DNA of 64,000 nt from Escherichia coli (GTDB lineage Bacteria > Pseudomonadota > Gammaproteobacteria > Enterobacterales > Enterobacteriaceae): NCBI RefSeq assembly GCF_041248615.1, contig NZ_CP158426.1. One strand, written 5' to 3'. Shown here one piece after another: positions 1-58,219 of this stretch. Position numbers and translations under genes: made by a program. The first letter of the stretch is position 1. Each line of letters opens with the position of its first letter. The notes beneath the pieces were generated by a model. It did not search any database. It saw nothing but the letters and a program-made list of their open reading frames with translations, and was not told the DNA's origin.

Positions 1-882
1 TTCAAGGAAGTGATCAAAAAGAACATGATTGAACTTGGCTGCGGCGGCTGGATGGCTGACTTCGGCGAGTATCTGCCCACCGACACGTACCTGCATAACG
101 GCGTCAGCGCGGAAATTATGCATAACGCCTGGCCCGCGCTGTGGGCGAAATGTAACTACGAAGCCCTTGAAGAAACGGGCAAGCTCGGCGAGATCCTCTT
201 CTTTATGCGCGCCGGTTCTACCGGTAGCCAGAAATACTCCACCATGATGTGGGCGGGCGACCAGAACGTCGACTGGAGTCTCGACGATGGCCTGGCGTCG
301 GTTGTCCCGGCGGCGCTGTCGCTGGCAATGACCGGACATGGCCTGCATCACAGCGACATTGGCGGTTACACCACCCTGTTTGAGATGAAGCGCAGCAAAG
401 AGCTGCTGCTGCGCTGGTGCGATTTCAGCGCCTTCACGCCGATGATGCGCACCCACGAAGGTAACCGTCCTGGCGACAACTGGCAGTTTGACGGCGACGC
501 GGAAACCATCGCCCATTTCGCCCGTATGACCACCGTCTTCACCACCCTGAAACCTTATCTGAAAGAGGCCGTCGCGCTGAATGCGAAGTCCGGTCTGCCG
601 GTCATGCGCCCGCTGTTCCTGCATTACGAAGACGATGCGCACACTTACACCCTGAAATATCAGTACCTGTTAGGTCGCGACATTCTGGTCGCTCCGGTGC
701 ATGAAGAAGGCCGTAGCGACTGGACGCTCTATCTGCCGGAGGATAACTGGCTTCACGTCTGGACGGGTGAAGCGTTCCGGGGCGGGGAAGTTACCGTTAA
801 TGCGCCCATCGGCAAGCCGCCGGTCTTTTATCGCGCCGATAGCGAATGGGCGGCACTGTTCGCGTCGTTAAAAAGCATCTAA
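1..882 (+). CDS. yihQ: sulfoquinovosidase / GH31 alpha-glucosidase family, C-terminal part (5' end upstream of window)
   Basis: ORF open in frame to the window edge, stop at 880-882; GH31-like sequence; synteny with yihP and yihO. Confidence 0.85.
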   Translation, partial: FKEVIKKNMIELGCGGWMADFGEYLPTDTYLHNGVSAEIMHNAWPALWAKCNYEALEETGKLGEILFFMRAGSTGSQKYSTMMWAGDQNVDWSLDDGLASVVPAALSLAMTGHGLHHSDIGGYTTLFEMKRSKELLLRWCDFSAFTPMMRTHEGNRPGDNWQFDGDAETIAHFARMTTVFTTLKPYLKEAVALNAKSGLPVMRPLFLHYEDDAHTYTLKYQYLLGRDILVAPVHEEGRSDWTLYLPEDNWLHVWTGEAFRGGEVTVNAPIGKPPVFYRADSEWAALFASLKSI

Positions 883-906
883 TCACATCCGCCCGTGGGG
901 AAACTC

Positions 907-2313
907 ATGGGCAAAGGGAGAACATCGATGAGTCACATCACAACGGAAGATCCAGCAACTTTACGCCTGCCCTTTAAAGAGAAACTCTCTTACGGTATCG
1001 GCGATCTGGCCTCTAACATCCTGCTGGATATTGGTACGCTTTATCTTTTGAAGTTTTATACCGACGTTCTGGGGCTACCTGGTACCTATGGCGGCATTAT
1101 CTTTTTGATCTCGAAATTCTTTACCGCCTTTACCGATATGGGAACCGGCATCATGTTGGATTCCCGACGCAAGATCGGTCCAAAAGGTAAGTTCCGTCCT
1201 TTTATTCTGTATGCGTCATTCCCGGTCACCTTACTGGCGATCGCCAACTTTGTCGGCACACCGTTTGATGTCACCGGTAAAACGGTGATGGCCACTATTC
1301 TGTTTATGCTTTACGGACTGTTTTTCAGCATGATGAACTGCTCCTACGGCGCAATGGTCCCCGCTATCACCAAAAACCCCAACGAACGCGCCTCACTGGC
1401 GGCATGGCGTCAGGGCGGCGCTACGCTGGGCCTGCTGCTGTGCACGGTGGGATTCGTGCCGGTTATGAATCTTATCGAGGGGAATCAGCAACTTGGCTAT
1501 ATCTTCGCCGCCACGCTGTTTTCACTGTTCGGCCTGCTGTTTATGTGGATCTGCTACTCGGGCGTGAAAGAGCGTTATGTCGAAACCCAACCTGCTAATC
1601 CGGCGCAAAAGCCTGGCCTGTTGCAATCTTTCCGCGCAATTGCCGGTAACCGCCCGCTGTTCATTCTGTGTATTGCTAACCTCTGCACCTTAGGGGCGTT
1701 TAACGTCAAGCTCGCCATTCAGGTTTATTACACCCAGTACGTGCTTAACGATCCCATCCTGTTGTCATATATGGGATTTTTCAGCATGGGCTGTATTTTC
1801 ATCGGCGTGTTCCTGATGCCTGGCGCAGTCAGACGTTTTGGTAAGAAGAAGGTCTATATCGGCGGCCTGCTGATTTGGGTGCTTGGCGATCTGCTCAACT
1901 ATTTCTTTGGCGGCGGTTCGGTCAGCTTCGTGACGTTCTCCTGCCTGGCATTCTTCGGCTCAGCGTTTGTTAACAGCCTGAACTGGGCGCTGGTTTCCGA
2001 CACCGTGGAATATGGCGAATGGCGCACCGGCGTGCGTTCGGAAGGGACGGTCTACACCGGTTTCACCTTCTTTCGCAAAGTTTCTCAGGCGCTGGCTGGT
2101 TTCTTCCCCGGCTGGATGCTGACGCAAATCGGCTATGTGCCGAACGTCGCACAGGCTGACCACACCATTGAAGGGTTGCGCCAGCTGATCTTCATCTACC
2201 CAAGCGCACTGGCAGTAGTCACCATTGTGGCGATGGGTTGCTTCTACAGTCTGAACGAGAAGATGTACGTCCGCATTGTTGAAGAGATAGAAGCCCGTAA
2301 ACGCACGGCGTAA
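907..2313 (+). CDS. yihP: GPH-family sugar:cation symporter (sulfoquinovose cluster)
   Basis: ORF track 895..2313; multi-TM GPH-family sequence, paralog of the next gene; ATG at 907 chosen, alternative ATG at 928 has the better SD (GGGAG 916-920). Confidence 0.8.
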   Translation: MGKGRTSMSHITTEDPATLRLPFKEKLSYGIGDLASNILLDIGTLYLLKFYTDVLGLPGTYGGIIFLISKFFTAFTDMGTGIMLDSRRKIGPKGKFRPFILYASFPVTLLAIANFVGTPFDVTGKTVMATILFMLYGLFFSMMNCSYGAMVPAITKNPNERASLAAWRQGGATLGLLLCTVGFVPVMNLIEGNQQLGYIFAATLFSLFGLLFMWICYSGVKERYVETQPANPAQKPGLLQSFRAIAGNRPLFILCIANLCTLGAFNVKLAIQVYYTQYVLNDPILLSYMGFFSMGCIFIGVFLMPGAVRRFGKKKVYIGGLLIWVLGDLLNYFFGGGSVSFVTFSCLAFFGSAFVNSLNWALVSDTVEYGEWRTGVRSEGTVYTGFTFFRKVSQALAGFFPGWMLTQIGYVPNVAQADHTIEGLRQLIFIYPSALAVVTIVAMGCFYSLNEKMYVRIVEEIEARKRTA

Positions 2314-2355
2314 TTATAATAAACAACGCCCTGCGGGGCGTTATAAGGAGTGATT

Positions 2356-3759
2356 ATGTCTGACCATAATCCACTGACATTAAGACTGAATCTGCGGGAA
2401 AAAATCGCCTATGGTATGGGCGACGTCGGTTCGAATTTAATGCTCTGCATCGGTACTCTGTATCTCCTCAAATTTTATACCGATGAATTAGGGATGCCTG
2501 CTTACTATGGCGGGATTATCTTTCTGGTGGCGAAGTTTTTTACCGCGTTTACCGATATGCTCACCGGATTTTTACTCGACTCGCGGAAAAATATTGGGCC
2601 TAAAGGCAAATTTCGTCCCTTTATTTTATATGCAGCGGTTCCGGCGGCGTTAATTGCAACGCTCCAGTTTATCGCCACCACCTTTAGTTTGCCGGTTAAA
2701 ACGACGATTGCCACCGCACTGTTTATGATGTTTGGACTTTCATACAGTCTGATGAACTGCTCGTATGGTGCGATGATCCCGGCAATTACCAAAAACCCGA
2801 ATGAGCGCGCGCAGCTCGCGGCTTACCGCCAGGGTGGTGCAACCATAGGGCTATTGATTTGTACCGTGGCGTTTATTCCGTTGCAGTCGCTTTTTTCTGA
2901 CTCCACCGTCGGTTATGCCTGCGCGGCACTGATGTTCTCCATTGGTGGCTTTATTTTTATGATGCTGTGCTACAGAGGCGTCAAAGAGCATTATGTGGAC
3001 ACGACGCCAACCGGACATAAAGCCAGTATTCTCAAATCTTTTTGCGCGATATTTCGTAATCCGCCATTGCTGGTTTTGTGCATTGCTAACCTGTGTACCC
3101 TGGCGGCATTTAATATCAAACTGGCGATTCAGGTCTATTACACCCAATATGTGCTGAATGATATTAATTTATTGTCGTGGATGGGATTTTTCAGTATGGG
3201 ATGTATCCTCGTCGGCGTATTACTGGTGCCATTAACTGTAAAATGTTTTGGTAAAAAACAGGTTTATTTAGCTGGCATGGTGCTATGGGCGGTTGGTGAT
3301 ATCCTGAATTATTTCTGGGGAAGTAACTCTTTCACTTTCGTCATGTTCTCTTGTGTCGCCTTTTTTGGCACGGCCTTTGTGAACAGCCTGAACTGGGCGC
3401 TGGTACCAGATACCGTAGATTACGGTGAATGGAAAACCGGTATTCGTGCCGAAGGTTCTGTTTATACCGGTTATACCTTCTTTCGTAAAATTTCTGCCGC
3501 ACTTGCTGGCTTCTTGCCAGGCATTATGCTGACGCAAATCGGTTATGTTCCCAACATCGCGCAAAGTGATGCGACATTACAGGGTTTGCGTCAGCTCATT
3601 TTTATCTGGCCTTGTGCGCTGGCAATTATTGCTGCATTGACGATGGGATTCTTTTACACACTCAATGAAAAACGGTTTGCATTGATTATTGAGGAAATCA
3701 ACCAACGCAAAAATAAAGAGATGGCGACAGAAGAAAAAACAGCTTCCGTAACGTTATAA
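2356..3759 (+). CDS. yihO: GPH-family transporter (sulfoquinovose importer family)
   Basis: ORF track; ATG at 2356 preceded by AAGGAG (2345-2350); protein starts MSDHNPLTLRL. Confidence 0.88.
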   Translation: MSDHNPLTLRLNLREKIAYGMGDVGSNLMLCIGTLYLLKFYTDELGMPAYYGGIIFLVAKFFTAFTDMLTGFLLDSRKNIGPKGKFRPFILYAAVPAALIATLQFIATTFSLPVKTTIATALFMMFGLSYSLMNCSYGAMIPAITKNPNERAQLAAYRQGGATIGLLICTVAFIPLQSLFSDSTVGYACAALMFSIGGFIFMMLCYRGVKEHYVDTTPTGHKASILKSFCAIFRNPPLLVLCIANLCTLAAFNIKLAIQVYYTQYVLNDINLLSWMGFFSMGCILVGVLLVPLTVKCFGKKQVYLAGMVLWAVGDILNYFWGSNSFTFVMFSCVAFFGTAFVNSLNWALVPDTVDYGEWKTGIRAEGSVYTGYTFFRKISAALAGFLPGIMLTQIGYVPNIAQSDATLQGLRQLIFIWPCALAIIAALTMGFFYTLNEKRFALIIEEINQRKNKEMATEEKTASVTL

Positions 3760-4610: not shown

Positions 4611-5876
4611 TTAAGCTTCAGCCGCCAGCATCTCTTTCTTACGTTGGCTAATACGCTTAACCAGCATTACGGAAACCACCGCACCACAGAATGCGAAGCA
4701 GGCCATAATGCCAAACACGATTTTGTAGCCAATAATCCCCGGATTTAAATCCAGAATGTAGCCATACAGACTGAAGCAGAACATCGCCGGGGCGTAACCA
4801 ATAAAGCTACCCAACGCCATCGCCGCGCCTGTTTTATTTTCAGCAATTTTTGCTTCGCCGATAGGTGCAAAAAATACGGCTCGCTGTGTAAAGACTATAG
4901 CGCCAAAGCCCAGCGTACATGCCATCCCTAAATAAACCGGCATACTTTCGTGCGGCAGCATAATCAACAGTACGAGCGCAGCGGTACTGATGATAAAGGT
5001 GTAGCATAGATATTTACTCGGCGATTTCAGGATCTTATCTGAAATCATGCCACCAATCGGTCCACCAATCATTTTCAGACAGTATTGGTTAATGATGCCG
5101 TAAGCCCCCACCAGCGCAACGGGCAATAGATAGATGTTTTTCAGGAATGGAATGAAGAATGTCAGGCCACAGTAAACCGCGTAAACGAAGAAGACGTTGA
5201 AAGCGATAAGCCAGATAGTTTTGTCTTTCAGCACCGAGGTCATACTGGTGTTTTTCGATGCTCCGTCTTCTTTTTTCACCTCAACGGACGGTGCCTCTTC
5301 TTTGTCATTCAGAACAAAGAAAATGATAATGCCTACGGCAATCACAATAAGGGAATAGAACCAGATGCCTGCTTTAAAACCCAATAAGCCACTGCCAAAC
5401 CAGGTAAATACTGCCAACGCAGAAAATGCCACCACGGTATCGACAATGCCACGCCCTGTTTCGAAGAAGCCAAACAACCGACCTTGTTGTTCGCTATTGC
5501 CCAATCGACTTACCGACTTGAGCAAGACCGGCCAGTTCATCATGTCGCAAGTAACGCCAAATAGCGCCCAGACAAAGAGGATGCCCCAATACCCCGGCAT
5601 TGTCGTCAAATAAACACCCAGTAATCCTGTCGCAATGAGTGAGAATGACATGGTGTATCTGCGCGGTAGTTTATCGGCAAAATAAATAGACAGAAAAAAG
5701 CCCACTGTCGTGACAAATGAGTTTACCGACATAGCATTACCAATTTGACCATTGGTCAAATGGAAATATTCCTGCATCGGGATATAAAACGCATCTTTCA
5801 GCGACGGTAATTTATAAATTGTACCGCCACACAATGTTAATAGACTAAATAACGCCCATTTCTTTTTCGTGAGCAT
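4611..5876 (-). CDS. yihN: MFS transporter
   Basis: 421-aa ORF, multi-TM MFS-like; conserved position. Confidence 0.85.
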   Translation of the reverse strand: MLTKKKWALFSLLTLCGGTIYKLPSLKDAFYIPMQEYFHLTNGQIGNAMSVNSFVTTVGFFLSIYFADKLPRRYTMSFSLIATGLLGVYLTTMPGYWGILFVWALFGVTCDMMNWPVLLKSVSRLGNSEQQGRLFGFFETGRGIVDTVVAFSALAVFTWFGSGLLGFKAGIWFYSLIVIAVGIIIFFVLNDKEEAPSVEVKKEDGASKNTSMTSVLKDKTIWLIAFNVFFVYAVYCGLTFFIPFLKNIYLLPVALVGAYGIINQYCLKMIGGPIGGMISDKILKSPSKYLCYTFIISTAALVLLIMLPHESMPVYLGMACTLGFGAIVFTQRAVFFAPIGEAKIAENKTGAAMALGSFIGYAPAMFCFSLYGYILDLNPGIIGYKIVFGIMACFAFCGAVVSVMLVKRISQRKKEMLAAEA

Positions 5877-5977
5877 AACATCCCCTAAGCGATTTTTAAA
5901 ATCACTGTTTTAAAGGCAATAAGATACCGACCATTCATATGGAATGGTTTTATTAACTGCGTATGAGTTAAAACTTA

Positions 5978-6958
5978 TTAGTGGTTCAGAAGATGGTTTG
6001 CCTCTTGTTTGATTTGTTGTAGTACGTTACGCACATGATTTATCTGATTAATTGCATCTTCTTTTTCTTTACGTAACCGCGCATCCAGTAAATGATTTTC
6101 TGGCAATGGTGTTTCACTCATCTGGCGATAAGGGATCCACGGATTATCATCTTCGTCTTCAAAGCGGAACGCCGGCGCATAGTAATCAACCTCTTCTTCC
6201 AGGCCATATGCCGTCACCTGCGGCTCATCATCACCCAGGCAGATAAGGTGCGTTAATAACGCTTTGAACGGCATATCACCCTGACCTGAAATACAGGCTT
6301 TATGACCCAGGCCACCCTCTTCTTTAACGATCAAGGCATCTTTGATATGGACCTGGGTAATATGCGGTGCCATCGTTTTTAAAGCGTCGATGGGATGCTC
6401 ATTTGCATTGATCATGTTCGCAAAATCAAACAGTAAGGAAAGAGATTCCATCTTACTTTCTTTGACCAGCGACACCAGCTCATGGCTTTTTAAATCTTCA
6501 TGCTGTTCGATCGTAAAAGTCAGGCCGCTGTCCTGATACGTTTCCCGTACATAGGCAATGTCGTTAGCGATGATCGATAATACGTCGCGCAAATTACCTT
6601 CATAACGTGGATAAAAACGTACGGACGATGCCCCAGTTTTCAACGCAATGGCGACGGCTTCGTCAATAGATGCCTTATCTGAAGCGCTGGTTTCAATATG
6701 AATATCAAGGTTCAGACGGCGGGCTTTATCCCCAAAGGCAGAGAGTTCTTTATCGTCCATATTACCAAGAGAAAAACGCTCGCCATCTAGAACATGGATT
6801 TTGACGCCACGTAGATTATTTTCACTTGCGATATCAAGTAAATCAGCAGGCAACACTCTTTCCAGCCGCATATTTAAATGAAAGGCATAAGCATGTAAAT
6901 AAAGAGGAAGAGTGTCGACACGTTGTAGAATCTTTCTTGCGTTATTTATTGTCACCAT
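5978..6958 (-). CDS. yihM: sugar phosphate isomerase/epimerase family protein
   Basis: 326-aa ORF; conserved position. Confidence 0.8.
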   Translation of the reverse strand: MVTINNARKILQRVDTLPLYLHAYAFHLNMRLERVLPADLLDIASENNLRGVKIHVLDGERFSLGNMDDKELSAFGDKARRLNLDIHIETSASDKASIDEAVAIALKTGASSVRFYPRYEGNLRDVLSIIANDIAYVRETYQDSGLTFTIEQHEDLKSHELVSLVKESKMESLSLLFDFANMINANEHPIDALKTMAPHITQVHIKDALIVKEEGGLGHKACISGQGDMPFKALLTHLICLGDDEPQVTAYGLEEEVDYYAPAFRFEDEDDNPWIPYRQMSETPLPENHLLDARLRKEKEDAINQINHVRNVLQQIKQEANHLLNH

Positions 6959-27067: not shown

Positions 27068-27095
27068 GCAAGAGTAGGCTGGATAAGACGCGCCA
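27068..27095. repeat. left half of a REP unit interrupted by the IS
   Basis: flank gtaggctggataagacgcgcca joins with 28528-28545 (gccagcgtcgcatccggc) to form one REP once the IS and one copy of GCCA are removed. Confidence 0.7.
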
Positions 27096-27619
27096 TGAAC
27101 TGCACCCCAAATGTTGGACATAATCTGACATCTGAAGGTGCAGTTTATGAAACATTCATTTGAAGTAAAACTTGCCGCTGTAAATCATTACCTGGCTGGT
27201 CAGGCAGGCATCATTTCTACGGCAAAACTCTTTCAACTTTCTCACACCAGCCTCTCACACTGGATTAATCTTTTTCTTCTTCACGGTCCTCGGGCACTGG
27301 ATTGCAGACACAAGCGTAGCTATTCTCCTGAAGATAAACTTTGCGTGGTTCTTTATGCTCTCGGGCATTCTGAGTCTCTACCCCGGGTAGCTGCCCGGTT
27401 TAACATTCCCAGCCACAACACGGTTAAAAACTGGATAAAAGGCTACCGCAAATCTGGTAATGAGGCCTTTATCAGGCGCAGGAAGGAGAAAAGCATGACC
27501 CGTTCTGATGATACCCATGAAAACGAGGCAAACATGACGCCGGAAGAGATGAAGAATGAGCTGCGTTATCTTCGCGCAGAAAATGCATATCTGAAAGCCA
27601 TGCAGGAGCATCTCCTGGA

Positions 27620-28527
<908 letters not shown>

Positions 28528-28545
28528 GCCAGCGTCGCATCCGGC
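28528..28545. repeat. right half of the REP unit interrupted by the IS
   Basis: gccagcgtcgcatccggc; see 27068-27095. Confidence 0.7.
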
Positions 28546-52877: not shown

Positions 52878-53690
52878 ATGGCAACAACACAACAATCTGG
52901 ATTTGCACCTGCTGCATCGCCTCTAGCTTCGACCATCGTTCAGACCCTGGACGACGCGATTGTGGCGGGCTTCACCTCTATCCCTTCACAAGGGGATAAC
53001 ATGCCTGCTTACCATGCCAGACCAAAGCAAAGCGATGGCCCACTGCCAGTGGTCATTGTAGTGCAGGAAATTTTTGGCGTGCATGAACATATCCGCGACA
53101 TTTGTCGCCGTCTGGCGCTGGAGGGGTATCTGGCTATCGCACCTGAACTTTACTTCCGCGAAGGCGATCCGAATGATTTTGCCGATATCCCCACGTTACT
53201 TAGCGGTCTGGTAGCAAAAGTGCCTGACTCGCAGGTGCTGGCCGATCTCGATCATGTCGCCAGTTGGGCTTCCCGCAACGGCGGCGATGTTCATCGTTTA
53301 ATGATCACCGGATTCTGCTGGGGTGGACGTATCACCTGGCTGTATGCTGCGCATAACCCGCAACTGAAAGCGGCGGTGGCATGGTACGGCAAACTGACAG
53401 GCGATAAGTCGCTGAATTCACCGAAACAACCTGTTGATATCGCAACCGATCTTAACGCGCCGGTTCTCGGCTTATATGGTGGTCAGGATAACAGCATTCC
53501 GCAGGAGAGCGTTGAAACCATGCGCCAGGCGCTGCGGGCTGCTAATGCGAAAGCAGAGATTATCGTCTACCCGGATGCCGGGCATGCATTCAACGCCGAT
53601 TATCGCCCGAGCTATCATGCCGAATCTGCGAAAGATGGCTGGCAGCGTATGCTGGAGTGGTTTAAGCAGTATGGTGGGAAGCGGAATTAG
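52878..53690 (+). CDS. ysgA: dienelactone hydrolase family protein (carboxymethylenebutenolidase-like)
   Basis: ORF track 52812..53690; ATG at 52878 gives MATTQQSGFAPAASP. Confidence 0.85.
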   Translation: MATTQQSGFAPAASPLASTIVQTLDDAIVAGFTSIPSQGDNMPAYHARPKQSDGPLPVVIVVQEIFGVHEHIRDICRRLALEGYLAIAPELYFREGDPNDFADIPTLLSGLVAKVPDSQVLADLDHVASWASRNGGDVHRLMITGFCWGGRITWLYAAHNPQLKAAVAWYGKLTGDKSLNSPKQPVDIATDLNAPVLGLYGGQDNSIPQESVETMRQALRAANAKAEIIVYPDAGHAFNADYRPSYHAESAKDGWQRMLEWFKQYGGKRN

Positions 53691-54081
53691 TTTCCTCTTA
53701 GTCTATATTTGAGATGGTGAGTGAACGAGTGCGTTTTGCTGCCATCTCTGTCCCCCAAAAAATAATCAGTATGAATTGATTGGAGAGCACGACTCCGCTA
53801 TTTGACCTTAAGAAAGTCGGCAAGTAATAGTCATAAGTGAGTCTCTTCACTGGCAGACACCTTAGAGATTTACCATCAACTCCCATTCTCAAACAAACAT
53901 TAATTATTATCAACACATTCACATTAATTATAAATTATCTCAGACCTTCCTGATAAAAAGATATTAAAGTGAAACATTTTGTTTTTCACATTTTAGTTCA
54001 TCCCTTTTAGGCGTAAATAAAGGTAAAAAATAACAATACTATTTTTCTTTCACAAAAGAATTAACAAAAGGTTTTTCAAGG

Positions 54082-55215
54082 ATGAGTGATATTATTTACC
54101 TGAACATAACCGGAGAACAACAAGGATGTATTTCCTCTCGTTGTGGAACGAGCGCATCAATAGGTAATCGCTGGCAGATTGGCCATGAAGATGAAATCTT
54201 CGCGTTCTCGCTCTCTAATAGTATTACGAATACAGGCAAAGGGTCACAATTGCATGGCCTTAGTTTCTGTAAATTGATTGACAAAAGCTCCCCGTTACTT
54301 ATTAACGCTATTAACAATAACGAGCAGTTGTTCATGGAGTTTGACTTCTATCGGATCAATAGATTTGGTCGATGGGAGAAATATTACAACATTCAACTTC
54401 GCGGCGCGCTCTTATCAGCAATCAATCACCTGTTTACTGAGAACAATCTGGATACAGAAACCATCACTGTCAGTTATGAATATATACTCTCCAGGCATCT
54501 GATTGCTAATACTGAATTTAGTTATTTGGCATTTCCCGATAACTACAACCGTCTGTTTATACCACGGCCAAAAACTAAAGATGATAATGGCCTCAAAACA
54601 CTCAATAGTAAAGCGGTTGGCAGACTGCTTGCTGCTGGCGGCATATACAATGGGAATATCGAAGGATTCAGGGAAACAGCAAACAAGTTGGGAGGAGATG
54701 CACCTGCTGGTTACGATCAAGTTATGGATAACAAAGGGTTACTCATCGCTGGTGCTTCAATAGTTGCTGGAGTTGTTCTGGGAAGAATGAGATTCCCTGA
54801 TTTGGAATCACTTGAGCATTTCGGAGCCAGAGGAGCAGTATCAGGAAGACCATTTAATCCCGACCTTGCCGGTGGTCCAATTGAAAACCTGACGATAGAT
54901 GGCGTAACAATCAACAGGGAAGGTATCGCTATTGTTGAAAAGCATATCTCCAGATTTGATCATGATCCAGCTAATGATGTAATGATTTCAAGGCTAAAGA
55001 AAATAGCAAATAAAGAATTGCTTCCTGAAAAATACGATCTGAACTACTATACTCATGAATGTCGCGAGTATCAGCGTTATTGTAATTTAGGATGGGAAAC
55101 AGGTGAACCGAAAGGTTTAGATGGATATGAATTATGGAATAATGTACATACTGCAACTCTAGAAGACTTTAAAATTAAAGATACTGACTTATTTCATCCG
55201 GATGCAACAAAATGA
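54082..55215 (+). CDS. Hcp (TssD) domain fused to a C-terminal extension of about 210 aa: putative orphan T6SS Hcp-ET effector
   Basis: ATG at 54082 with AAGGA SD; residues 1 to about 150 match the Hcp family (IYLNITGEQQGCI..SIGNRWQIGHEDEIFAFS..LSFCKLIDKSSPLLINA..FYRIN); Gly/Ala-rich linker with a short hydrophobic stretch (LLIAGASIVAGVVLG), then a domain with no motif I can assign. Confidence 0.8.
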   Translation: MSDIIYLNITGEQQGCISSRCGTSASIGNRWQIGHEDEIFAFSLSNSITNTGKGSQLHGLSFCKLIDKSSPLLINAINNNEQLFMEFDFYRINRFGRWEKYYNIQLRGALLSAINHLFTENNLDTETITVSYEYILSRHLIANTEFSYLAFPDNYNRLFIPRPKTKDDNGLKTLNSKAVGRLLAAGGIYNGNIEGFRETANKLGGDAPAGYDQVMDNKGLLIAGASIVAGVVLGRMRFPDLESLEHFGARGAVSGRPFNPDLAGGPIENLTIDGVTINREGIAIVEKHISRFDHDPANDVMISRLKKIANKELLPEKYDLNYYTHECREYQRYCNLGWETGEPKGLDGYELWNNVHTATLEDFKIKDTDLFHPDATK

Positions 55216-55469
55216 CGATTACGATAGTTGAATTTAACGTGCTGAAAGTTATGGCTGAGAAAGATATTGACTGGAGCTGGATGGTGCTGGATCGTACTTT
55301 AGCTATACGAAATATTCCAGGATTTGGCAACGTAGCGAATATCGTAACAAAGCTGGTTAATCATGGGTTGGTTGATATCGTAAATGGTGAGGGCAACTCT
55401 AGACCACGCTACAGAGTTTCTCAATATGGATTGAATCTTATCAAAGAACAACAAGACAACCTCTTCTGA
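55212..55469 (+). CDS. putative cognate immunity protein, copy 1 (85 aa)
   Basis: ATG at 55212 overlaps the toxin stop (ATGA at 55212-55215), implying translational coupling; paralogous to the next ORF. Confidence 0.6.
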   Translation: MTITIVEFNVLKVMAEKDIDWSWMVLDRTLAIRNIPGFGNVANIVTKLVNHGLVDIVNGEGNSRPRYRVSQYGLNLIKEQQDNLF

Positions 55470-55528
55470 TCCAGCCATTACAGGAGCATGATTTACATTG
55501 TGATCTTTCAATAAGATACTCATCAATT

Positions 55529-55789
55529 TTGGTACAGAATATCGTGATCACTAAAAATGAACTTAACGTGCTGAACGTTATGACTGAGAAAGATATAAAC
55601 TGGAACTGGATGAATCTCGATCGCACACTATCCATAAGGCAAATTCCAGGATTCGGGAATGTTGTTAACATTGTTAACAAATTAGCTAACGAAGGTTTGG
55701 TTATTATTGAGGATAGCGGGAATAAGTCTATGCCTCACTACCACGTTAGTGAAAAGGGATACAATCTCGTGCAACGTGAGAATAAATAA
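55529..55789 (+). CDS. putative immunity protein, copy 2 (paralog, 86 aa as drawn)
   Basis: about 60% identical to copy 1 over ~74 aligned residues (by eye), including IPGFGNV.NIV.KL...GLV; begins on TTG (55529) or GTG (55544), no ATG before the conserved core, no obvious SD. Confidence 0.5.
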   Translation: MVQNIVITKNELNVLNVMTEKDINWNWMNLDRTLSIRQIPGFGNVVNIVNKLANEGLVIIEDSGNKSMPHYHVSEKGYNLVQRENK

Positions 55790-55957
55790 CGTAGCGTTGA
55801 TTACTGAACGGAATCACTCAAAACTGTGTTTTGCGAAAAAAACGATTCGGTTATTTCTGCTCCTGAAGATCAGCTTCAATCTGGCACTCATGCAAAATGG
55901 CTTCCAGTGCTGGAAGCCATTATCGTACTGCAATTTACAGTGACTCGTTAATATTCG

Positions 55958-58219
55958 TCATCCCCGACGCAAATTCTGCGCCGCCTGCACCATGTTCGCC
56001 AGTGCCGCGCGGGTTTCTGGCCAGCCGCGCGTTTTCAGGCCACAGTCCGGGTTGACCCACAGACGCTCTGCCGGAATGCGTTTTGCCGCTTTCTTCAGCA
56101 AGGCTTCAATCCATTCTACGCTCGGTACGTTTGGCGAGTGAATGTCATAGACGCCAGGACCGATTTCATTTGGATAATCAAACTCTTCAAACGACTCCAG
56201 CAACTCCATGTCGGAACGCGAGGTTTCGATGGTGATGACGTCTGCGTCCAGCGCCGCAATCGAATCCATGATGTCGTTGAACTCGCAGTAACACATGTGA
56301 GTGTGGATTTGTGTGTCATCTTTCGCCACGGCGGCGTTGATACGGAAAGCCTCCACGCCCCACTGGAGATAGGCATCCCAGTCGCCGCGACGCAGCGGTA
56401 AACCTTCGCGCAGTGCCGGTTCATCAATCTGGATGATGCCAATTCCAGCGGCTTCCAGGTCCGCCACTTCATCACGCAGCGCCAGCGCAATTTGTTTGGC
56501 GATGGTTTCACGGCTGACATCTTCACGCGGGAACGACCAGCAGAGAATAGTCACCGGGCCGGTCAACATCCCTTTCACCGGTTTATCAGTCAGGGATTGC
56601 GCATACTTCGCCCACTCAACGGTAATCGGTGCCGGGCGGCTAACGTCACCAATAACAATCGGTGGCTTCACGCAGCGTGAACCGTAGCTCTGTACCCAAC
56701 CGTTTTGCGTAAAGACAAAACCGTCGAGGTGCTCGCCAAAGTATTCCACCATGTCATTACGCTCGGCCTCGCCATGTACCAGCACATCCAGTCCCAAACG
56801 TTCCTGCTCAACAATGGCCTGCTTGATATGTTCCGCAATGCCCGTGCGGTAGTTATTGGCGTCGAGATTACCCTTTTTAAAATCCAGACGCAGGGTACGA
56901 ATCTCCGTGGTTTGCGGGAAGGAACCAATCGTGGTGGTCGGCCACGCGGGCAGTTTAAAACGCGCACGCTGGGCTTCAGCACGCACTTCATAGACATTCG
57001 CACGCTGACTGTCCTGGGCGGTGATCGCCGCCAGACGCTTTTCTACTGCCGGATTATGAACACGAGTAGAGTGACGACGCGCCTGAATCGGAGCGCTCCA
57101 CTCTGCCAGAGCAGCCGTGTCACCACTGTTCAGCGCATCGCGCAGCAGTGCCAGTTCATGACATTTTTGCAGGGCGAAGGCAAACCAGCTTTTCACTTCT
57201 GCATCAAGACGCGTTTCCACGCTCAGGTCGATGGGGCTGTGCAGCAGTGAGCAGGAAGATGCCACCCACAAATCGCGTTTGCCGACAATGTCCTTAATTT
57301 GCGCATACTTCTCGGTAAGATCGGCGCGCCAGACGTTACGACCATTGATCAGACCCGCAGACAGCAGCCAGTCAGAAGGCAGACGCTTGTGCAGTTCAGC
57401 AACGTCATCTTTACCATGTACAAGATCGACATGCAGACCCTGAACAGGCAGCGCAGTAATCGTGTCGAGATTTGGCGTTACGCCTTCAAAATAGGTGGTC
57501 AGCAGCAGTTTCACCTGTCCCTGGAGCGCGTCGTAAGCGGGTTTGTATGCGTCCAGCCACGCCTGCGGCAGTTCCAGTACCAGCGCGGGTTCATCAATCT
57601 GTACCCACTCAATGCCGCGTTTTGCCAGTTCTGCCAGCACTTGCTGATAAATCGGAAGAATGTCGTTCAGCAGGCTCAGGCGATCAAACTGTTCACCTTT
57701 CACTTTACCCAGCCACAGGTAGGTAACCGGCCCCAGCAGCACAGGTTTCACCTTGTGGCCCAGCGCCAGCGCCTCGTCCACTTCGTCCAGCAGCTGCGTC
57801 CAGGTCAGTTTGAACTGTTGGCCTTTAACGAATTCCGGCACCATGTAGTGATAGTTGGTATTAAACCATTTGGTCATTTCCGCTGCCGCCGCAGGTTCGC
57901 CAGTCGGCGCACGTCCACGACCAATACGGAACAGGGTGTCGATATCTACCGAACCATCTTTGTTCTGATGACGCGCCGGAACGTTACCCAGCAGCAGACT
58001 GGTGGTCAGTACATGATCGTACCAGGCAAAATCGCCCACCGGCAGCAGGTCGATACCCGCTTGCTTTTGTTGATCCCAGTGACGAGCACGCAATTCACGC
58101 CCTACCGCCAGCAGTTCTTCACGCGTGGAGTTCCCCGCCCAATAACTCTCTTGCGCTTTTTTCAGCTCGCGACGCAGGCCAACGCGAGGGAAACCGAGGG
58201 TGTGATTAAGAATTGTCAT
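55958..58219 (-). CDS. metE: cobalamin-independent methionine synthase
   Basis: 753-aa ORF starting [29 protein letters not shown]. Confidence 0.97.

Follow-up and report, generated by a model that had tools for sequence, protein, structure and literature searches.

An orphan Hcp fusion of Escherichia coli joins a type VI tube protein to an uncharacterised toxin domain followed by candidate winged-helix immunity genes

Between ysgA and metE, the stretch of Escherichia coli chromosome analysed here (64 kb of contig NZ_CP158426.1; hereafter, the window) carries a small low-GC islet that encodes an Hcp protein with a long C-terminal extension and, directly behind it, two short open reading frames (ORFs), referred to as imm1 and imm2. 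We propose that the fusion is a specialised (“evolved”) effector of the Hcp-ET type for a type VI secretion system (T6SS), that it is accompanied by immunity genes on an acquired islet, and that a nuclease is its most likely activity; we assign this reading a probability of roughly 0.6. The delivery format is the familiar one of Hcp-ET proteins, and the toxin and immunity proteins constitute an uncharacterised family without a recognisable fold. The features of the islet are as follows, with lengths in amino acids (aa).

54082–55215, + strand: Hcp-ET gene, an ORF for a 377-aa Hcp–toxin fusion (RefSeq WP_001521777.1, annotated just as “TssD”)
54082–54522, + strand: Hcp/TssD tube-protein domain, aa 1–147 (TIGR03344, PF05638, PDB 6a2v)
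54595–54816, + strand: conserved pre-toxin module, aa 172–245, kept behind three different N-terminal domains
54733–54795, + strand: hydrophobic Gly/Ala “zipper-like” segment, aa 218–238, inside the pre-toxin module
54817–55212, + strand: toxin domain, aa 246–377, of an uncharacterised family
55212–55469, + strand: imm1, candidate cognate immunity gene (85 aa, winged-helix), whose start overlaps the toxin stop codon (ATGA)
55529–55789, + strand: imm2, second candidate immunity gene, whose longest ORF encodes 86 aa; the RefSeq start is the GTG at 55544 (81 aa)
54949–55469, + strand: allele-specific cassette, comprising the last ~90 aa of the toxin and imm1, from the comparison with the sister allele L007
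53691–55957, no strand: low-GC islet of ~2.2 kb, bounded by the stop codons of ysgA and metE

The fusion gene is an intact ORF with an ATG start and no internal stop codon, at exactly the position given in an earlier note drawn from the letters of this stretch, and the peptides quoted there (IYLNITGEQQGCI, GHEDEI, KLIDKSSPLL, FYRIN, EKHISRFDHDP, YYTHECREYQRYC and NNVHTATLEDFK) all occur in its translation. The note had read the N-terminal ~150 residues as Hcp/TssD, and profile searches place this assignment far above chance. NCBIfam TIGR03344 matches with an E-value of 2.8e-36 and 124.9 bits (cut-off, 58.9) over profile positions 1–161 of 167, Pfam T6SS_HCP (PF05638) matches with an E-value of 4.8e-14, and among the PDB sequences the solved Hcps 6a2v and 3he1 match with E-values of 8.5e-15 and 1.5e-12, respectively. 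K-12 YhhZ has an Hcp domain that shares 78% identity with this one. The extension beyond it is 230 aa long, and thus exceeds the 70 aa above which an Hcp is counted as Hcp-ET. Synteny with the annotated genome NZ_AP022049.1, which is collinear with the window except for one insertion sequence (IS), places no T6SS gene besides the fusion within the 64 kb, as the earlier note had stated. These data support the view that the protein is an Hcp with a C-terminal extension, encoded outside any T6SS cluster.

Next, we searched 1.84 billion cluster representatives exhaustively with HMMER, which delimited the toxin domain to residues ~246–377 and returned a family of 547 clusters (50% identity) at E ≤ 0.001. 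The domain ends within 25 residues of the C-terminus in 123 of the 134 full-coverage matches. Its hosts, among them Rhs-core, SpvB-Rhs and PAAR proteins, are between 138 and 5214 aa long. The unrelated trafficking N-termini that precede it—Hcp, DUF8093, a third domain, PAAR, Rhs, SpvB-Rhs, LXG and S-type pyocins—give the arrangement by which polymorphic toxins are recognised, namely one C-terminal domain behind many carriers. A look at the neighbourhoods of homologues, which the earlier note had recommended, likewise found the domain in polymorphic-toxin and bacteriocin contexts. As judged from these sequences, the C-terminal domain is a widespread killing domain of polymorphic toxins and bacteriocins that belongs to an uncharacterised family.

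Among 135 representatives of the domain, no variation is seen at H288, D319, H325 and E329. At least 99% of them keep E326 and H356, and W352, R304 and R332 reach, together with this pair, at least 98%. The window copy has every conserved residue of the family. Of the His/Glu/Cys-rich stretches singled out by the earlier note, the His and Glu residues hold, and are joined by Asp among the family-wide invariants; the Cys residues are conserved in enterobacteria only. Pfam contains no match to the toxin half even at E ≤ 10, whether the query is the window protein, 61 diverse members or a non-Hcp relative; NCBIfam and PADLOC contain no matching family, and neither sequence nor profile comparisons of the domain retrieved a match in the PDB. 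The extension consequently falls outside HNH, colicin DNase, rRNase and the other profiled toxin families, in line with the earlier note, which could match it to no such fold. Its suggestion of a possible new toxin family stands as regards the uncharacterised status, and has to be widened as regards the extent, for the domain proper reaches beyond Hcp and into many phyla. Full-text searches with accession numbers and motif peptides found nothing, and the searchable text neither names nor characterises the domain; it may be among the unannotated clusters of the T6SS and polymorphic-toxin surveys (PMC11148199, PMC12994826, 10.1101/2021.10.19.465003).

What lies between the Hcp and toxin domains? 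The Gly/Ala-rich linker that had been noticed there is real, and is part of a conserved module (aa 172–245) with a hydrophobic segment, GLLIAGASIVAGVVLG, whose Kyte-Doolittle mean is 1.69 over 19 aa. In the homologues of residues 150–377, the conserved module begins at ~K172. No fewer than three N-termini, unrelated to one another, carry it: Escherichia, Salmonella and Citrobacter have Hcp, Pantoea, Lonsdalea, Klebsiella and Phytobacter have a ~140-aa domain, and Cronobacter, Atlantibacter and Enterobacter have PF26362/DUF8093. Moreover, the 243-aa protein P0221 joins the same module (KTINSKAAGRLLAAGG...GRM) to another C-terminal tip (…AGRALQKHGSREGSAFP…), and therefore the junction after “GRMRFP” behaves as a recombination point for toxin swapping. 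The pre-toxin module thus behaves as a unit separate from the toxin domain. Gly-rich hydrophobic stretches of a similar kind precede the toxin in the PAAR-type relatives, and in the bacteriocin relatives the Pyocin_S inner-membrane-translocation (IMT) domain occupies the position of the module, for which a role in membrane translocation is plausible. At four loci with non-Hcp carriers (L002, L003, L005 and L008; toxin ORFs at ~5320–6430), no T6SS genes are present within 6 kb.

The same killing domain is carried by bacteriocins. A Foldseek search of AFDB50 with the toxin model yielded 122 significant matches, and those beyond the E. coli, Shigella and Salmonella copies are mostly named “S-type pyocin” or “Pyosin/cloacin translocation domain” (41–48% identity). 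The bacteriocin-type matches come from Pseudomonas, Serratia, Klebsiella, Salmonella and Pantoea, and PAAR, RHS and LXG proteins are matched as well. In addition, tblastn located the domain on 35 plasmids. The ColE1-type E. coli plasmid pS19_141-d (6995 bp) encodes, in order, a 747-aa bacteriocin, a 90-aa hypothetical protein and a colicin lysis protein. On 5783-bp Klebsiella plasmids (L082), a 780-aa protein is followed by an 87-aa ORF, an extra DNase-type immunity gene and a lysis gene; since the 780-aa bacteriocin shares one 90%-identity cluster with klebicin B, it is klebicin B with a swapped killing domain and the old immunity gene kept. A Salmonella plasmid bacteriocin consists of Cloacin (aa 1–264), Pyocin_S (aa 421–557) and this toxin domain (aa 570–708). 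In Pseudomonas aeruginosa, a pyocin encoded beside toxA (L087) combines an S2-type N-terminus with this toxin domain, and is followed by an 85-aa “immunity protein” and then by orphan S6-type and E-type immunity genes. Both of these chimeric bacteriocins (L082 and L087) keep, downstream, the immunity genes of the DNase or rRNase domains that were displaced.

Five killing domains are recognised in the nuclease bacteriocins (PMC5536347). Four of them have Pfam models, none of which matches the present domain, and the fifth, the non-HNH DNase of pyocin S3, is without a Pfam model. The pyocin S3 type occurs in 19% of P. aeruginosa, a species in which the present domain is rare: its P. aeruginosa immunity gene is found on only 49 contigs and encodes 85 aa. 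The immunity protein of pyocin S3 has ~153 aa. Set apart by prevalence and immunity size only, the two domains are unlikely to be the same family. By these comparisons at the sequence level, the family is an unrecognised class of killing domain in colicin-, klebicin- and pyocin-type bacteriocins.

The gene that follows the toxin, imm1, encodes a protein without a signal peptide, and imm2 is 59% identical to it. In nearly all of the 79 genome loci that were fetched for the toxin domain, an ORF of 70–100 aa starts a few bases from the toxin stop codon, and iterative searches with hidden Markov models (HMMs) identified this downstream ORF as homologous to imm1 in 51 of the 79. The homologues span the Gammaproteobacteria, Betaproteobacteria, Cyanobacteria, Planctomycetota, Acidobacteriota and Actinomycetota, and the downstream ORFs of the Bacteroidota join the family by profile–profile comparison (hhalign, 96% probability). 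The AlphaFold2 model of imm1, with a predicted local distance difference test (pLDDT) score of 88.9, has the topology helix-helix-helix-strand-strand-helix, in which the hairpin forms the wing of a winged helix. Consistently, the family profile matches PadR-like winged helices in the PDB (2esh, E 7e-6), the Pfam matches are weak ones to PadR and HTH_45, and NCBI names some copies “MarR family transcriptional regulator”. imm1 is a single 85-aa domain, and lacks a dimerisation extension.

Are these small proteins immunity proteins or regulators? We favour immunity over regulation, because of the position in the colicin operons, the cross-phylum synteny and the co-variation with the toxin tip described below. 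Synteny and co-variation also indicate that an immunity gene lies directly downstream of the toxin, as in Hcp-ET loci. We therefore regard the downstream ORFs as putative winged-helix immunity proteins, with imm1 as the candidate cognate one. In cyanobacterial loci (L026–L034 and L040, from Microcoleus, Tychonema and others), the toxin domain is a stand-alone ORF of ~133–140 aa, followed by a protein of 135–161 aa that matches the immunity profile very strongly and has about twice the usual immunity length. These pairs, which are without a trafficking domain, look like toxin–antitoxin-style modules.

The two E. coli alleles of the islet differ in the tip of the toxin. The GTDB representative of E. 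coli (L007) carries, in the same ysgA–metE islet, a sister allele (allele B) with a 382-aa protein and a single immunity gene. The window protein agrees with it in 37–40 of 40 residues per block (at least 92%) up to aa ~280, and then in 26 of 40, 32 of 40 and 8 of 22. The immunity gene of L007 is 81% identical to imm2 and 61% identical to imm1, and positions 55545–55859 of the window match the allele B immunity DNA at 92.7%. The toxin tip and the immunity gene thus co-vary between the E. coli alleles. Given the likeness of imm2 to the immunity gene of allele B, the window holds toxin tip A and immA inserted ahead of a retained immB, and plain duplication is not an apt description; imm2 is, accordingly, taken to be a retained putative immunity gene against the sister toxin allele. 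This two-allele islet follows the “displaced immunity” pattern, which is known from the colicin plasmids and the pyocin S locus (PMC4905994). Strain 99-3311 also carries allele B, interrupted by IS3.

The AlphaFold2 model of the toxin domain, built on a 61-sequence alignment, is confident (mean pLDDT 92.7; predicted template modelling score 0.87); in it, four helices come after an extended N-terminal segment. Structure searches with this model found no neighbour outside its own family. By helical periodicity, D319, Y323, H325, E326, E329 and Y333 lie on one face of the third, long helix, and on the last helix W352 and H356 likewise point to one side; from this arrangement we predict that an interhelical cleft holds a His/Asp/Glu metal site. 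The conservation of H288, D319, H325 and E329, together with E326 and H356, suggests a metal-dependent enzyme. The position of the toxin domain right after the IMT domain in bacteriocins points to a cytoplasmic target, and the immunity proteins, devoid of a signal peptide, are consistent with this location. According to PMC9040868, the Pyocin_S/IMT domain is found specifically in those bacteriocins and T6SS effectors that bring nucleases into the cytoplasm. By this analogy, the substrate is probably nucleic acid, which is the weakest step of the proposed mechanism.

Several known enzyme classes were considered for the toxin domain and rejected. HNH, the name given by NCBI to truncated copies, is ruled out by the fold and the profiles, as the model contains no beta-beta-alpha-Me/HNH arrangement. 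HEPN is ruled out by the missing Rx4-6H motif, and ART and BECR by the all-helical model. For the HNH colicin DNase, E3 rRNase, E5 tRNase and colicin D tRNase, no match to PF12639, PF09000, PF12106 or PF11429 was obtained.

How would the fusion act? We propose that it is built into the Hcp rings of a T6SS encoded elsewhere in the genome, which would fire it into a neighbouring cell. There, the hydrophobic Gly/Ala segment of the pre-toxin module may help the toxin domain across the inner membrane. In the cytoplasm, the toxin would work as a metal-dependent enzyme through H288, D319, H325-E326, E329 and H356, most likely as a nuclease. In the producer cell, imm1 would bind and block the cell's own toxin, while imm2 would protect against the sister allele that circulates in E. 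coli.

A T6SS that could serve this purpose is present in strain GTEN_23 (NZ_CP113486.1), which carries, in one piece, an islet 100% identical to that of the window. Its complete T6SS is located at the aspV tRNA, ~950 kb from the islet, and comprises tssB, C, E, F, G, J, K, L (annotated as icmH), M, A and H, as well as tagH, vasI, VasL, two hcp genes, vgrG and Rhs. The supposition in the earlier note that the T6SS is encoded elsewhere thus finds a concrete instance. Furthermore, among 5426 complete E. coli genomes, 841 contain at least 80% of positions 53600–56000, and the site is empty in most of the rest; in genomes without the islet, the ysgA–metE gap is ~175 bp. Two further orphan Hcp–toxin islets resemble the present one: one between aroP and pdhR (L084, 14995–19158), encoding a 593-aa Hcp-PyocinS-DNase followed by four “bacteriocin immunity” genes, and yhhZ–yrhA between yhhY and ggt in K-12 (L085, 4001–5670). 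Their Hcp domains share 67% and 75% DNA identity, respectively, with the one studied here. E. coli thus possesses a clade of orphan Hcp–toxin fusions in core-genome gaps, at yhhY/ggt, aroP/pdhR and ysgA/metE.

Several observations weigh against the nuclease effector that we prefer. Residue chemistry and the association with the IMT domain are the sole grounds for calling the toxin a nuclease, and the all-helical model is unlike the known nuclease folds (beta-beta-alpha-Me, PD-(D/E)xK, BECR and HEPN). The Hcp domain of the fusion is just 30–38% identical to the Hcps of the GTEN_23 aspV cluster (38% to the 160-aa Hcp and 30% to the 172-aa Hcp), and co-assembly with these cluster-encoded Hcps can therefore only be presumed. 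The immunity proteins of the bacteriocin type, whose common motif is KGPNWKEPKF, bear only a weak resemblance to imm1 (hhalign E 0.002, probability 13%). Finally, the fusion gene is pseudogenised or IS-disrupted in many lineages. The first of these points bears on an alternative with the same architecture and delivery, in which the toxin is another cytoplasmic enzyme: a hydrolase degrading nucleotides or NAD(P), a phosphoesterase with a different substrate, or a zincin-like protease with H325-E326-x-x-E329 in place of HExxH. The toxin fold has no neighbour among the known nucleases, a nucleotide base could stack against the conserved W352 and Y323, and H-E-x-x-E with a downstream His is spaced like a zincin metal site, although we treat the zincin-like idea as a minor variant. 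Set against the IMT association, which speaks for a nuclease, an enzyme of this other kind is possible, if rather doubtful.

The decay of the gene raises another explanation, namely that the fusion is an unused relic and that the islet persists mainly through the immunity that it confers against relatives or against bacteriocins with the same domain. The gene is an orphan, ~950 kb from the T6SS even in GTEN_23, and K-12, which is without a T6SS, keeps the paralogous yhhZ. The B2-type strains (EcPF5; L089, 1698–2831) have a nonsense mutation, W98*, in the Hcp domain, with the toxin region otherwise intact and both immunity genes kept; the UTI89 protein Q1R4A0 is a 229-aa remnant of this copy. 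In many genomes IS1 or IS3 lies upstream of or inside the fusion gene, and the immunity genes are retained where the toxin gene is broken, which also fits the effector–immunity reading that we prefer. In the window, however, the ORF is full length with its conserved residues complete and the islet is free of IS, the exact 377-aa sequence is found on at least 1000 contigs, and a complete T6SS accompanies the identical islet in at least one genome. Of the earlier note's alternatives, an orphan cargo effector or a relic, orphan status is borne out; relic fits the B2-type and IS-disrupted copies, not the copy in the window, and as a general explanation we consider it unlikely. Far less probable still is that the winged-helix ORFs are transcriptional regulators and the extension a non-toxic accessory domain of Hcp. 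The fold, the PadR/MarR-like profile matches and the NCBI names would suit such a role, but the gene fills the immunity slot between bacteriocin and lysis gene on colicin-type plasmids, overlaps the toxin stop codon, accompanies the toxin domain across phyla whatever its N-terminal carrier, and co-varies with the toxin tip; moreover, the domain itself ends Rhs, PAAR, LXG and pyocin proteins, which are sites of toxins only. The remnants in B2 strains, including the “colicin” of APEC O1, are annotated as proteins of 229 or 163 aa under the names “HNH endonuclease” or “colicin”.

The proposed effector can be compared with several known systems. The Hcp-ET clans, as outlined by Ma et al. (2017, Virulence 8:1189) and relayed in PMC6730261 and PMC6099711, comprise ET1 (HNH DNase), ET2 (DUF2235/Tle1), ET3 and ET4 (Pyocin_S with colicin DNase) and ET5 (papain-like), and the delivery of Hcp-ET1 is reported to depend on T6SS2 (PMC6730261). 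Like these, the present protein has an N-terminal Hcp, a C-terminal toxin and one or more downstream immunity genes, at times in several copies, and orphan loci in core-genome gaps are frequent among them (yhhZ; Hcp-PyocinS-DNase between aroP and pdhR). In contrast, its toxin domain belongs to none of the five clans described in PMC6099711 and to no Pfam family, its putative immunity protein is a winged helix, and a hydrophobic Gly/Ala pre-toxin module replaces the Pyocin_S/IMT domain. The nuclease bacteriocins (colicins E2–E9 and D, klebicin B, and pyocins S1/S2/S3/S6; PMC5536347, PMC9040868) are similar in that the killing domain is found on klebicin B, pyocin S2 and Cloacin plus Pyocin_S carriers, followed by an immunity gene of ~85–90 aa, a lysis gene on plasmids and orphan immunity genes downstream. 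The difference is in the delivery, which would be by Hcp fusion and not by receptor-mediated uptake.

A further described parallel is Eh1/Ehi1 of Citrobacter koseri FDAARGOS_164 (Geller et al., bioRxiv 10.1101/2021.10.07.463556), a 366-aa Hcp with an unannotated extension and an 84-aa downstream gene. In that study, Eh1 was toxic in E. coli and was neutralised by Ehi1; Citrobacter and Salmonella both carry it, and stand-alone versions without Hcp exist. These genera also contain homologues of the present protein, arranged in the same way. The sizes differ slightly (377–383 and 83–91 aa in the family studied here, as compared to 366 and 84 aa); compared by description only, Eh1 may be an earlier sampling of the present domain. 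PT1 and PT7 (Nachmias et al., bioRxiv 10.1101/2021.10.19.465003) are short C-terminal domains with new folds and His/Asp clusters that act as metal-dependent DNases, with a small acidic immunity protein covering the active site, and the present domain is likewise short and C-terminal, with a conserved His/Asp cluster. Identity with any of PT1–PT9 was rejected, as their taxonomic ranges and compartments do not fit the present family, and the structures of PT1 and PT7 were not among the matches of the PDB search.

Of the complete E. coli genomes, ~15% have the fusion gene, labelled as nothing more than a tube protein. A common interbacterial weapon, and an immunity that many more strains keep, would thus be invisible in current annotation. 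The activity of the shared killing domain would fill a gap in colicins, klebicins, a pyocin S2 chimera, Rhs, PAAR and LXG proteins, and the cyanobacterial pairs, and could define a new cytotoxic class of bacteriocins; the fold and the winged-helix type of immunity could likewise be new. In addition, the two alleles, with the toxin tip and immunity swapped and the old immunity retained, offer a compact natural model of how toxin–immunity specificity diversifies. A bolder idea, which we put forward with considerable reserve, is that the domain founds a superfamily of enzyme toxins with a new all-helical fold, a sixth colicin-like killing class, winged-helix immunity and an activity that is neither a conventional DNase nor a conventional RNase, common to T6SS, LXG/T7SS-type systems, bacteriocins and the cyanobacterial pairs.

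The islet itself has a GC content of 0.385 (up to ~0.40 over the patch), as compared to 0.507 for the window, and is probably a small, horizontally acquired unit carrying the effector and immunity genes. A scan for promoters and terminators within it gave consensus-level matches at most and no clear terminator. The window is a part of the E. coli chromosome in which ubiE, rmuC, udp and ysgA precede the islet and metE, metR, bioP, yigL and pldB follow it; the annotated genome NZ_AP022049.1 shows the same order, from yihQ to ubiB, then ubiE, rmuC, udp and ysgA, and then the islet. The one IS that interrupts this collinearity is an IS3-family element at 27095–28528 of the window, between mobB and an rrn operon, which is missing from NZ_AP022049.1. 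It contains two ORFs:

27138–27668: orfA of the IS3-family element, 176 aa
27773–28495: orfB of the IS3-family element, 240 aa, integrase-like

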